From a virus: a DNA stretch of 64,000 nucleotides. Positions 4,953 to 51,663 of the stretch are shown in pieces; the stretch's first letter is position 1; each line of letters begins with the position of its first letter. The stretch spans positions 102,606 through 166,605 of IMG/VR virus record IMGVR_UViG_3300028394_000041; one strand, given 5' to 3'. Below the pieces are notes generated by a model that worked only from the letters and a program-made list of their open reading frames with translations, was not told the origin of the DNA and ran no database searches. The position numbers were made by a program, and so were the translations under genes.

Positions 4953-4982
4953 ATAATAAATTACACTATATTAAATGTGCAA

Positions 4983-28401: not shown

Positions 28402-28520
28402 GTATGTTATTACACATGTTTATATACTAGTGTAAGAAGAGATATGACCATTTCTACTAGTTTAATTTGTTTTGCTGTGTTAGTTTATATATATTATTTA
28501 GTAGAGAGAGTTAAGTAATA

Positions 28521-30217: not shown

Positions 30218-30230
30218 AAACTATATTACA

Positions 30231-30497
30231 CTACTCATCCAAATAGGTTTTGATATCTTTTATTAGCTTTTTTCTCTTGTTGCGTTCTAAAACTGTTATT
30301 AAGGTAGCTAGTGATATTGGAAAAGCAAACCTCAGAAAGAATTGAAGGTGATCTTCTCTACTTAATAAATCAAAGTAATTAATGTAAAGGTCACTTAGCC
30401 CCCAAAGTGTGAAAAGTATCGCAGGGACAAAAGTGATAAAAAAGAACTTATCATAGGATTTTAAATTAGCCCACCAGTTCTTAATTTTAAGTAACAT
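30231..30497 (-). CDS. Small two-TM membrane protein
   Basis: Two hydrophobic segments. Confidence 0.55.
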   Translation of the reverse strand: MLLKIKNWWANLKSYDKFFFITFVPAILFTLWGLSDLYINYFDLLSREDHLQFFLRFAFPISLATLITVLERNKRKKLIKDIKTYLDE

Positions 30498-38167: not shown

Positions 38168-38214
38168 ATAATGATATTACACCTTAAATTAAAAATATAA
38201 AATGATATTTATAT

Positions 38215-39012: not shown

Positions 39013-39294
39013 TTAAACTAATGAGTAAGATTTTTTAAATTTTAAATTTAATTCAAAAGGATTAACGGTTTCACTATGATCAAATCTTTTAATAAAAGCC
39101 GCACCAATTTTTGGCATTTTAGCGAAGAACATTTTATTATTTATTTTTAATGTAACGTGAGAAGGCAATACAGAAACACTCATTAATTTACCTTTCATAT
39201 TTCTTTTTATTGCTCTAGCGATTGCACAGTTTTGAGGATTTGCCATTTCTCCTTCAAATATATTTTGTTGTGTTATTTTTATAGTTTTATTCAT
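39013..39294 (-). CDS. Hypothetical protein
   Basis: 93 aa, NPQNCAIARAI motif. Confidence 0.55.
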   Translation of the reverse strand: MNKTIKITQQNIFEGEMANPQNCAIARAIKRNMKGKLMSVSVLPSHVTLKINNKMFFAKMPKIGAAFIKRFDHSETVNPFELNLKFKKSYSLV

Positions 39295-39929
39295 TTTATT
39301 TCCTGTATTTTATAATCATAATTATCGCTATCTTCAGTAACCCATTTGGGGCTATTTTCAGCGGTATAAATATGAGAATTTATTTTTCTTTGCAACAATA
39401 ATTCATTTGTTTTTGTTGCGAAGCTTGGATCGAATACTTTAATTCTGTTGTTGGGTTGTATTGCGAAATTACCATTATCGAGTTTTATAACATGACCAGC
39501 TTTATGTTGATCTGGCTTTTGACTAAATCCAAAATTCAATTCATTATAATCACTATGCGCCCAATCGAGAGTGAATAAATAACGACCCATGTATTCTTTA
39601 CCACTTCTACCAGTATATTTAATTACTTTATTTTCTAATAGGTAAAAAGTTGTTACAGAAATGTGATAGCTAAAACTATCCCATAATTCTAATTCGTCTA
39701 ATTCCATATCTGGCGCATCTTCTTTAGAACAGAATGCGCTTATAGGAGCATGCCACCAAATTCCTCCGTCTTCCATAAGAAAATTAAAAAGAGGGACTTG
39801 ACTGGGAAGACTTGTGACACCAAAAATTAAACACTTATATTTTTTGTCAAAGCTGTCTTCTTGATTTCTTAAATAATTTCCTCTTACAAGAGCTTCAATC
39901 GGAGGAATATTTGCATTTAAAAAAGACAT
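39291..39929 (-). CDS. Conserved hypothetical phage protein
   Basis: FLNANIPP...LELWDSFSY...YLFTLDW...GNFAIQPNNRI. Confidence 0.65.
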   Translation of the reverse strand: MSFLNANIPPIEALVRGNYLRNQEDSFDKKYKCLIFGVTSLPSQVPLFNFLMEDGGIWWHAPISAFCSKEDAPDMELDELELWDSFSYHISVTTFYLLENKVIKYTGRSGKEYMGRYLFTLDWAHSDYNELNFGFSQKPDQHKAGHVIKLDNGNFAIQPNNRIKVFDPSFATKTNELLLQRKINSHIYTAENSPKWVTEDSDNYDYKIQEIK

Positions 39930-39953
39930 CGAATTGATTACGTGCTATTATGA

Positions 39954-40389
39954 ATTCTCTAAAAACTAAGCAGAAGCGAAATTCCCCAAGTTGTAGTCTA
40001 GTGTTTGCTATGCCTTAAATATTTAGAACAATCATCTTAAATTCGAGATGGGGAGGAGCAGGCTTTCTCTGTCGTAGTGAATCCTGACCCCTCCCCGTGT
40101 TATTAAGAATCTCGCCCACACGCTTTCGCGGATTTAGGGAAGCTTTCATGCGACTTATACCTCCAAATGTTAGCTGCATGTCACCATGCAGAGCGGACTG
40201 TATTTAAACTAATATTTCTATTAATCGGGTCATTTATGGCAGATTATTGTTGGAATCTCACTGCCGCAGTCTCTACACCTTCTCATCGCCTTTTAATTCC
40301 AGATGAGCTTGGCTCGGTATTTTCTCCCTTAGAAGAGAGGTTTCCACCGAATTTACCCTTTTCGTGTTTCTGCTTAGATTTTAAAGAAC
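39954..40389 (-). ncRNA. Free-standing group I intron-like ribozyme, apparently circularly permuted
   Basis: P (AATTCGGTGGAAAC), Q (AATACCGAGCC), R (GTAGAGACTG), S (AAATACAGTCC) elements in order, with P3-P9 pairings; ends joined by a ~25-bp stem; no interrupted gene. Confidence 0.8.
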
Positions 40390-40426
40390 TACAATCTATT
40401 ACACATTTTTTTAAATAAAAATATAA

Positions 40427-40900
40427 TTAAATATATACAGTATAAATACTATTGAATTCTTCTGCTGTTAGATTATAAAATTTTCCATTTTGAGGTTCTA
40501 CAAATAATAATTTAAAATTATCTGAACCATCATCATTTTTCCCATCTTGAACATATACTATATTTATTGCATGTGCTCCACTTAATTCATCTTCTGCTTT
40601 TGAATTAGCTACATAATATACTACTCCTACAGCTATACCATTTGCTTCGCTCTCAATAACTTGCTCATAATACCCACAACAAAAAAGTTTAAAAGAATCT
40701 GCAAAATTATCGCAATCCCATTTATGCACCCATTTTGTTAATTTTAATGCTTGAAGCCATTTCCAATATTTAGGAAATAGTTCATCTTTTACCATGTCAT
40801 AAGTAGGACAAAAAAAGTCTACATCAGATATAGAAAAATTTTGTGGTATTTTGCCATTGTTTTGAAATGGAATATATAATTGTTTTCCAGTTATTATCAT
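40427..40900 (-). CDS. Cysteine-protease-like protein (WDCDNF...HA..EPQ)
   Basis: DCDNFA / HAINI / FVEPQ papain/transglutaminase-like triad pattern. Confidence 0.55.
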   Translation of the reverse strand: MIITGKQLYIPFQNNGKIPQNFSISDVDFFCPTYDMVKDELFPKYWKWLQALKLTKWVHKWDCDNFADSFKLFCCGYYEQVIESEANGIAVGVVYYVANSKAEDELSGAHAINIVYVQDGKNDDGSDNFKLLFVEPQNGKFYNLTAEEFNSIYTVYI

Positions 40901-50462: not shown

Positions 50463-50536
50463 CGCTCCTAGCAGGAATTGAACCTGCAACCTACAGTTTA
50501 GAAAACTGTTACTCTATCCAGTTGAGTTATAGGAGC
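50463..50536 (-). tRNA. tRNA-Arg(UCU)
   Basis: Cloverleaf; anticodon arm ACAGT-TTTCTAA-ACTGT; GGTTCAATTCC T-arm. Confidence 0.9.
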
Positions 50537-50548
50537 AACAAGAAAACT

Positions 50549-50621
50549 TCGCCTAAGTCAGACTCGAACTGACACTTGAACGATTTTAAGTCGTTTGCCT
50601 CTGCCATTGGGCTACTAGGCG
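50549..50621 (-). tRNA. tRNA-Leu(UAA), short variable loop
   Basis: AACGA-CTTAAAA-TCGTT anticodon arm; GTTCGAGTC T-loop. Confidence 0.85.
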
Positions 50622-50627
50622 AATAGA

Positions 50628-51014
50628 TTAACTATCCGTATCTAATTTTTCAGCAGAGATTGTGCCAATAGAATAAAAGTCTTGAGCTTCTGCTGTATGC
50701 ATAAAAGATTCTACTGGAATGTTTGCAATCGCGGTTTTCATTCTGTGCATAGCAACCGCTTTCATTCCACCCTTCTTGCCTCTAAACTTTTTGCCAAGCT
50801 TGTCGCTCATTCCATTCAACATATACTTAAACATAACTCGTTCCAGCTTCTCCATAGTAATCCAAAAATATCCAAAGCTCTCACTCATCCATTGAATACT
50901 TCCGTTTGTTCCGCCCCAGTTATATATGCGGTTGTGAAACTGCTCAATGTCATCTACTTTACCTTTCATTCCAATAACCCAATGTGCCCCAAGATTTTGT
51001 TTAATTAATGTCAT
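50628..51014 (-). CDS. Early protein, paralog of 41896..42315
   Basis: FHNRIYNWGGTNG...IGTISAEK. Confidence 0.65.
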   Translation of the reverse strand: MTLIKQNLGAHWVIGMKGKVDDIEQFHNRIYNWGGTNGSIQWMSESFGYFWITMEKLERVMFKYMLNGMSDKLGKKFRGKKGGMKAVAMHRMKTAIANIPVESFMHTAEAQDFYSIGTISAEKLDTDS

Positions 51015-51057
51015 AGTTTTATATTATACTTTCTTTGTTTTTTGTCAAGAGTTGTTT

Positions 51058-51129
51058 TGGGTCGTATAGGACTTGAACCTATAACAAATTCCTTAAAAGG
51101 GAACTACTCTACCATTGAGTTAACGACCC
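51058..51129 (-). tRNA. tRNA-Lys(UUU)
   Basis: GTTCC-CTTTTAA-GGAAT anticodon arm; GGTTCAAGTCC. Confidence 0.9.
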
Positions 51130-51245
51130 TTTTTTAGCAAGTCTTTCCTTGTTGGTAAAGTAATCTTTGATATCTTGTTCTGTTAACTCTGAGTGCTTGT
51201 TATATGAATGAAGCATCCAATCAGCGCACGGAGAAGAAAGGAGAG

Positions 51246-51317
51246 TGGGCAAGGCTGGACTCGAACCAGCACTAGGAAAATTATGAGTTTTCTGTTTCAC
51301 CTTTAAACTACTTGCCC
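51246..51317 (-). tRNA. tRNA-Met or Ile2 (CAU)
   Basis: GAAAA-CTCATAA-TTTTC anticodon arm; GGTTCGAGTCC. Confidence 0.85.
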
Positions 51318-51572
51318 CACTTTAGAAGGAAAACTGGAAGGTTTCGGCACTTGGAAAAACTCTACTGCAAAAGCCTTGGAATAATTCTCCAAGTCTTTGA
51401 GTGAACAAGTTTCCTTGGGCGTACACATACGGATTGCTGAGTTTAGGATAACGGCTCGGTCTTGGCCGAACACATTCATCACATAGAATGGTGCTTTTTG
51501 TTTTGTCATAATGTAAGAATACCACAACTTGAGTTTTTGTCAATAAAAGAATCTCGTTGACTATCAGTGACT

Positions 51573-51663
51573 TACTAGAGGTAGGATTCGAACCTACATT
51601 GCGCTCAAATCTAGAGCTTCACGAGTATAAGTCGTGGGTCTTAACCAGTTAGACGACTCTAGC
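51573..51663 (-). tRNA. tRNA-Ile(UAU) with long variable arm
   Basis: CACGA-CTTATAC-TCGTG anticodon arm; ~20-nt variable arm with GCTC/GAGC stem; GGTTCGAATCC. Confidence 0.85.

Follow-up and report, generated by a model that had tools for sequence, protein, structure and literature searches.

Genomic setting of the element

The window, by which we mean the whole 64,000-nt stretch of viral DNA that was analysed, carries a group I core RNA at positions 39955-40390 on the minus strand, sited between two intact late genes. The main features of this locus are:

40427-40900, minus strand: upstream flanking ORF for a lectin-like protein (157 aa, full length)
40398-40404, minus strand: GTGTAAT promoter-like motif ahead of the element, recognized by its copy-number excess and by the empty site of relatives
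40383-40390, minus strand: conserved 5' box AGUUCUUU, the putative transcript 5' end, at a fixed 7-nt spacing from the motif
39937-39943, minus strand: degenerate second motif ACGTAAT, 7 nt before the ATG (39927-39929) of the downstream gene
39291-39929, minus strand: downstream flanking ORF (212 aa, full length, with an end-to-end match to phrog_3704)

Both flanking genes are intact, as originally predicted. Whereas the lectin-like and phrog_3704 ORFs are separated by 497 nt in the window, three relatives (L014, L016, and L006) have the same two genes approximately 20-30 nt apart, without the ~450-nt element. This empty-site spacer consists of a TAA stop, TAT, GGTGTAAT, then the 8 nt TCTAAGCG and the ATG, such that a promoter motif identical to that ahead of the element precedes the start codon of the downstream gene. 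The element is therefore an insertion that interrupts neither a gene nor an RNA gene, and the empty sites together with the intact flanks leave no overlooked host RNA gene at this position. The interruption of a host gene and rejoining of its exons that characterize a group I intron are not found here, and the claim that the RNA is stand-alone holds. The element is also absent from all 80 relatives of the downstream gene taken from IMG/VR, and a DNA similarity search against 50,697 deposited phage genomes gave no match.

The proposal that the element has its own promoter is supported by the statistics of the GTGTAAT motif and by its spacing from the 5' box, which is exactly 7 nt wherever a family member has a motif of the GTGTAA type. 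The window has 19 copies of GTGTAAT, where 9.75 would be expected; one of 100 shuffles gave as many as 19, and 16 of the copies lie on the minus strand within the 1-41 kb region of terminase and virion genes. Most copies are found 5-24 nt, and often 7 or 8 nt, 5' of the ATG of a long ORF, which suggests that the late mRNAs of this phage are leaderless or nearly so; examples with an ATG only 7-8 nt downstream on the minus strand of window positions 1-41200 include 38176-38182, 30225-30231, 28409-28415, and 4960-4966. Ahead of the element, GTGTAAT is followed by 7 nt and then by the element itself. Across the family, the AGTTC of the box (family box AGTTCTTT) starts exactly 7 nt after the motif in all 20-odd elements having a GTGTAA-type motif, and 7 nt after the motif is also the position of the ATG in several late genes; in two elements (L201 and L134) the box starts 5 nt after a T4-type motif, TATAAATA or AATAAATA. 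From this fixed spacing we infer that the RNA starts at or beside the A of AGUUCUUU (40390), and no other feature of the wider family is as well conserved as the box. At the position of the second motif, an intact GTGTAAT is found in four homologs (L231, L238, L247, and L202), and the downstream gene therefore keeps its own promoter in most of them.

No ORF on either strand is common to the six copies of the element described below; a 54-aa ORF at 40015-40179 was rejected as coding potential, being confined to the window and L231. An intrinsic terminator was looked for 3' of the element and none was found. Other RNA genes were observed in this phage group, including a cluster of five tRNA genes at window positions 50463-51663 (minus strand) and, in L024 (1090-1477, minus strand), a relative of the window's phage, a full-length tmRNA gene (RF00023, 105 bits, E = 5e-41).

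Catalytic core and terminal helix

The Rfam group I model, RF00028, run on the sequence as it stands, recognizes the core as predicted, matching positions 40174-40430 at 48.5 bits (E = 6.3e-11), which is 1.5 bits below the gathering score of 50. This score derives from P3-P9, with the P1/P2 part of the model forced onto AT-rich upstream sequence with non-canonical pairs. A permissive Rfam scan of 39500-40900 gave, besides RF00028, just two chance-level matches, with RF00028 the sole family at E <= 1; neither a GIR1 family match nor an adjacent c-di-GMP-II aptamer appeared. Each motif named in the original prediction was found in place on the minus strand, and the core comprises:

40174-40358, minus strand: the group I catalytic core as a whole, from the RF00028 match and the six-homolog alignment
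40355-40358 with 40227-40230, minus strand: P3, invariant in six homologs (GGGTAA at 40353-40358)
40278-40351, minus strand: P4-P6, of which P4 is invariant and P6 has compensatory changes
40267-40271 with 40196-40200, minus strand: P7, invariant
40267-40276, minus strand: R element GTAGAGACTG
40195-40205, minus strand: S element
40238-40265, minus strand: P7.1, with compensatory changes
40208-40225, minus strand: P8 with a GAAA loop, with compensatory changes
40174-40191, minus strand: P9 hairpin with a GUGA loop, with compensatory changes

Homologs found by pattern scans, L202 (=L235), L229, L231, L238, and L247, make up subfamily A together with the window's copy. These six sequences have a mean column identity of 76% and all occupy one locus, after the same lectin-like gene. 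Two sequence patterns used to find further subfamily A copies in IMG/VR retrieved L202 alone. When bacterial and archaeal genomes were scanned with a pattern of the box plus P3, 77 matches were returned from GC-rich, coding-looking sequence; these are counted as chance because a rough estimate of the chance number is ~67 and none has P4 after the motif.

The model tested on the six-sequence alignment comprised the terminal helix, P3-P9 with the P7 pseudoknot, P7.1, a GNRA hairpin, one further helix, P1, and P10. Taken in full it leaves 98.5% of the cells paired, and 12 of its pairs have changed on both sides among the six homologs, a number equalled in none of 500 shuffles, with slid controls giving 0-3. 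The core helices are 100% paired, with compensatory changes in four of them (P6, P7.1, P8, and P9), while the core junctions and the P7 G-site elements are invariant. Moreover, the fold energy of the whole element beats 100 of 100 shuffles (z = -4.7). Judged by its sequence, with P3-P9, a P3/P7 pseudoknot, and R and S elements, this is a genuine and complete group I core.

Outside the core, the two ends of the RNA pair with each other:

40360-40388, minus strand: 5' arm of the terminal helix (the P2 3' strand), pairing with 39955-39981
39955-39981, minus strand: 3' arm of the terminal helix (the P2 5' strand), pairing with 40360-40388

The resulting helix is approximately 25 bp long (element nt 3-31 with 410-436), has a duplex energy of -30.4 kcal/mol, and holds five of the 12 compensatory pairs; its inner part reads CGAAA/UUUCG in the window and GUUUUGA/UCAAAAU in L202. 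The 5' arm is followed by one A (J2/3) and then by P3, and the 3' arm is preceded by UU and an invariant, purine-rich, guide-like sequence, CUUGGGGAA. Canonical relatives with the same P3-P4 sequence are ordered as 5' exon, P1 guide, a GNRA-capped hairpin P2, a short J2/3, and P3. Since the covarying terminal helix stands where these relatives have their hairpin P2, the RNA is opened in P2, with one core helix made by its 5' and 3' ends, as in permuted ribozymes. The predicted P2 opening is thus borne out both by the compensatory pairs in this helix and by a connectivity that matches the canonical guide-P2-J2/3-P3 order. We consider it likely that the architecture as a whole is stand-alone, promoter-driven, and opened in P2, and the covarying GNRA hairpin at 40121-40130 may replace the GNRA loop that was lost from P2. 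At L202 2673-2760 (minus strand), the end of the 3' arm of the terminal helix (GCTTTTAGAGAATTA) is tandemly duplicated and then followed by GCTTTTAGTGTAAT; because this arm end resembles promoter context, the sequence hints at recombination between the two.

Candidate P1 and P10 and the wider phage family

Between the core and the 3' arm of the terminal helix lie the candidate reaction sites, in which a caret marks the predicted splice site:

40163-40164, minus strand: candidate omega-G (GG) in the conserved context AACAUNUGG, with the 3' splice site after G40163
40136-40162, minus strand: candidate internal "exon" of 27 nt, bounded by P10 (AGGU) and P1 (UUCCCU)
40134-40141, minus strand: candidate P1 substrate UUCCCU^AA, with predicted cleavage after U40136
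39992-40133, minus strand: variable P1-loop insert of 142 nt, with the GNRA hairpin (40121-40130) and a helix (40109-40114 with 40044-40049)
39982-39991, minus strand: guide, ACUU (P10 part) then GGGGAA (P1 part, 39982-39987), with CUUGGGG invariant

The candidate P1 joins UUCCCU^AA (40141-40134) to UUGGGGAA (39989-39982) and is paired in all six copies, with one-sided changes alone; at the proposed 5' splice site, L202 and L247 have C-G and the other four copies U.G. P10, formed by the AGGU after G40163 and the ACUU directly 5' of GGGGAA, is likewise found in six of six copies, including L202, where an AAGU/GCUU change retains the pairing. The best or joint-best P10 starts right after the conserved G (40163) in all six. 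It has a length of 6 bp in L202 and L238, and in five copies the minimum-energy fold has it closing the 3' domain. Because P1 and P10 adjoin, the predicted junction CCCU^AGGU would be complementary to one continuous guide in a canonical P1/P10-like manner. This arrangement, with the 3' splice site 5' of the 5' splice site and both segment ends on one guide, is 100% paired, shows no compensatory change, and has a rival substrate. The covariation originally proposed as a check on these helices was accordingly found in P2, with its five compensatory pairs, and not in P1 or P10, where one-sided, wobble-tolerant changes alone occur.

A local hairpin, GGAGG/CUUCC, competes for the P1 substrate strand and is equally compatible with the alignment, and when the 3' domain is folded alone P1 has a high probability in the window (0.9) and L231 (0.47) only. 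Within the P1 loop, the GNRA stem covaries (UA, AU, GC) and the GAGAU/AUCUC helix is kept around large indels. The internal segment is 27 nt long with an AUG in three copies and 26 nt long without an AUG in the other three, so that its translation is not conserved; its readings as a stop-free ORF or a ribosome-binding site were rejected on the same grounds, with the AUG and the 27-nt length found in three of six copies only. No P1 with a 5' splice site was found in the usual group I position 5' of the core, where the leader is occupied by the terminal helix. As candidates for such an upstream P1, the 5' hairpins (UAGAUU/AAUCUA in the window and UUUAGUU/AACUAAG in L202) were rejected for want of a U.G within the predicted transcript. 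Both CUUUAAAAUC and the loop of the 5' hairpin, CUUUAAA, may bear a likeness to the anticodon loop of tRNA-Leu(UAA).

Beyond subfamily A, a scan with the P4/P6 sequence identified matches in more than 119 viral contigs, and the 5' box is present in 16 of the 124 core matches extracted. The two elements of subfamily C (L201 and L134) match RF00028 at 67.2 and 55.5 bits, above the gathering score, and have a terminal helix of 16-19 bp that includes the box, as well as a compact canonical P1 hairpin (GGGU-loop-GCCC, with a U.G) 4 nt 5' of the 3' arm of that helix. By these predicted pairings, subfamily C is a cleaner case of the P2-opened layout. For subfamily D (L250, L251, L253, and L254) no convincing P1/P2 model could be derived. 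Conventional group I introns with the same core were also observed in apparent phage tRNA genes (L118, L154, L173, and L086/L142/L160).

Subfamily B comprises approximately 20 elements, found mostly ahead of conserved ORFs of unassigned function, with up to three copies per contig and no long terminal helix. The elements, among them L058, L120, L100, L139, L164, L203, L211, and L212, lie 3' of the late-promoter motif and 5' of a start codon, and some contigs have two or three copies (L100 with L120; L058 with L207 and L212). The subfamily B guide (UUGGCC and variants, its G 9-10 nt before P3) pairs with a GGNU^AA sequence located 2-20 nt 5' of the next ATG. With independent definitions of guide and substrate, the G.U does not vary, and the middle position has nine G-C, three U-A, and two A-U pairs, with one mis-registered A/G. 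This pairing was matched in 0 of 10,000 permutations, in a test biased by the choice of the best cognate site. A wobble pair that never changes, with covarying pairs on either side, is what marks a group I P1, and with the guide first and the substrate last these elements are read as opened in the P1 loop. In approximately six of 22 elements, a conserved AUAACA..UG motif is the exact position of the best P10 found within 100 nt; in L203 this P10 has 8 bp.

The first step of the subfamily B reaction would free a downstream mRNA with a very short leader, which makes sense where, as in the window's phage, late genes start 5-24 nt, and often 7-8 nt, after the promoter motif. Covarying guide/substrate elements behind the same promoter motif support the existence of a family of rearranged group I ribozymes. 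Since these sister elements place the predicted cut a few bases ahead of the start codon of a late gene, the family probably works as a set of RNA-processing devices for late transcripts. In L218, ~60 nt upstream of the ATG at ~7549, a subfamily B unit precedes a hairpin that resembles a terminator and has a T-run, after which come a new GTGTAAT and the next gene, an arrangement that by its sequence is a second stand-alone layout.

Proposed mechanism, alternatives, and known ribozymes

Read from these predicted pairings, the order of parts shown along the RNA is P2', P3 through P9, omega-G, a short segment, the P1 substrate, a large structured P1 loop, the guide, and P2, which makes it a circular permutation of natural origin with its opening in the P2 loop. 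We hypothesize that the guide (ACUU^GGGGAA) would hold the internal UUCCCU as P1 and the bases just 3' of omega-G as P10, that free guanosine would attack after U40136, and that the new 3' OH would then attack after G40163, whereby the 27-nt segment would leave as a ring and the two ribozyme halves would be kept together by the terminal helix. In a minimum version, the RNA would cut itself at one of the two sites (U40136 or G40163). That this is a non-coding RNA gene behind a late-promoter motif, whose P2-opened core cuts itself and releases a 27-nt ring, seems to us about evenly balanced between right and wrong, and cleavage after U40136 with formation of the ring has at best the same chance and perhaps a slightly smaller one. 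Weighing against the mechanism are the C-G splice-site pair in L202 and L247, the rival substrate in the 5' box, the competing GGAGG/CUUCC hairpin, the one-sided changes in P1 and P10, the restriction of the evidence to six close copies at one locus, a core score under the Rfam gathering cut-off, and the lack of an evident gain for the phage.

An unlikely alternative is cis-splicing with the first eight bases of the transcript (AGUUCUUU) as the 5' exon. The box would leave the terminal helix to pair with the guide GGGGAAU, guanosine would attack after U8 (window 40383), and the 8-mer would be joined after G40163, so that the "intron" would be bases 9-228 and the guide and one P2 strand would stay in the product. 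If G404 is fixed as the wobble G, the box is the best P1 in all six copies, with seven exon-side and two intron-side pairs (AGUUCUUU^AA) and an invariant U8.G404; P10 fits equally well, conservation across the wider family is highest in the box, and several subfamily B elements have, by eye, a purine-rich complement of it (GAGAAGAA, GAGGAA, and UAGAGGAAU). However, the box is sequestered in the terminal helix (-30 kcal/mol) by the 10 outer pairs, and its own helix with the guide includes four wobbles, three of them consecutive U.G pairs. Subfamily C has retained both the box and its complement at the 3' terminus, although the guide there, GCCC, is unable to pair with the box, and an invariant box yields no covariation evidence. 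For its confinement in the terminal helix and its weak guide pairing, the box is ranked second to the internal P1, which is favored also by analogy with subfamilies B and C, both of which would act on the segment from an upstream omega-G to a downstream 5' splice site. The original prediction of a terminal stem and a downstream P1 in homologs is confirmed to the extent that both are paired in all six copies; the reactive role given to that P1 is weakened by the lack of compensatory change, by the C-G pair in L202 and L247, and by the rival U8.G404 pairing. The bases at 40383-40374 (AGUUCUUUAAAAUC), which are the end of the box and those following it, resemble the internal candidate substrate at 40142-40131 (AGCUUCCCUAAAUCC), and the two strands could be alternative substrates for one guide.

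It is similarly improbable, in our assessment, that the element is a folded group I-derived ribozyme making one cut or none, without ligation, whose role would be to signal processing, to persist as a stable structured RNA, or to regulate the neighboring late genes. If one cut is made, it would come either from hydrolysis 3' of omega-G or from a guanosine attacking at P1. The splice-site U.G missing from two of six copies would fit such a role, as would an internal segment that varies between 26 and 27 nt, with or without an AUG, and subfamily B makes sense by its first cut alone, which would free an mRNA with a 2-20 nt leader. Conservation of P10 and omega-G, which are needed by the second step only, argues against this reading, as does the fact that the whole core, with its G-site elements in P7, is invariant. 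An inactive selfish cassette between duplicated promoter motifs, or the decaying remnant of a mobile intron, would agree with the presence/absence differences among close relatives, the two flanking motif copies, the tandem duplication of the 3'-arm end in L202, and the sub-threshold Rfam score, but is very unlikely given invariant core junctions and 12 compensatory pairs across core, periphery, and terminal helix that show selection on the fold.

The element shares its core (P3-P9 with R and S elements), its guide-P2-J2/3-P3 order, and GNRA loops on peripheral helices with canonical ORF-less group I introns of phages and bacterial tRNA genes (relatives L223, L225, and L148). In those introns P1 lies upstream, P2 is a hairpin, and a gene is interrupted, whereas in the window P2 is made from the RNA ends, the candidate P1 follows omega-G, and nothing is interrupted. 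The GIR1 lariat-capping ribozyme is a group I derivative that has no upstream P1, pairs its ends (DP2), and processes the 5' end of a downstream mRNA. The window differs from GIR1 in having no match to that family, ~200 nt between omega-G and the terminal helix, and a normal P3/P7.

Our literature search found no natural permuted group I ribozyme reported for bacteria or phages, and the only published examples of the swapped layout that it turned up are engineered RNAs and a single mitochondrial intron of a coral. The original statement that no natural group I equivalent is known must be amended for this coral ND5-717 intron, a partial precedent of a different kind (PMC6545197). The engineered permuted intron-exon (PIE) constructs are man-made from the Anabaena pre-tRNA and T4 td introns (reviewed in PMC4344496) and are usually opened in other loops. 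They share with the element the order of 3' half-intron, exon, and 5' half-intron and the predicted products, a circular exon and two half-introns. The element differs in that it occurs naturally and comes with a promoter, a terminal helix of 25 bp, a structured 142-nt P1 loop, and a predicted 27-nt ring. Natural group I back-splicing from a permuted intron-exon precursor has been described for ND5-717 in corallimorpharian mitochondria (Chi et al. 2019, PMC6545197), where the permuted order results from where the transcript begins and ends on a circular genome, the exons belong to a protein gene, and a 2.1-kb circular intermediate was demonstrated by experiment (PMC6545197). In the window the gene order itself is permuted and the putative "exon" is a non-coding 27 nt. 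There is also a likeness to the bacterial permuted group II ribozymes, which produce 15-86 nt circles (Roth et al. 2021, PMC8637638) and whose authors cite permuted group I RNA as a laboratory construct only (PMC8637638). Shared with these are a stand-alone non-coding gene, reversed splice sites, small predicted rings, and extra non-canonical structures (PMC8637638). The two nonetheless belong to different ribozyme classes, with a different fold and chemistry.

The window's element, next to a gene that retains a promoter of its own in most homologs, looks like an autonomous derivative within this family of processing devices. More tentatively, and with a probability we place well short of even, this phage lineage may carry a promoter-driven, naturally rearranged family of group I ribozymes, opened in the P1 loop or the P2 loop, as self-contained RNA-processing genes, some of which would cut late transcripts a few nt 5' of the start codon and so restore the usual near-leaderless mRNAs, and all of which would excise the segment from omega-G to the 5' splice site as a small circular RNA, 27 nt long in the window. 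In the sister elements, a ribozyme inserted 3' of the promoter and 5' of the start codon would release the mRNA once more by a cut 2-20 nt before the AUG. The group I ribozymes known from nature are, to our knowledge, almost all introns that excise themselves from a host gene. A free-standing, conserved form that has a promoter and its domains in swapped order would stand to group I introns as the permuted ribozymes reported in 2021 stand to group II introns. If this is true, it would offer a natural compact scaffold for circular RNA production, and phages would have repurposed a self-splicing core as an RNA-cutting or ring-making gene.
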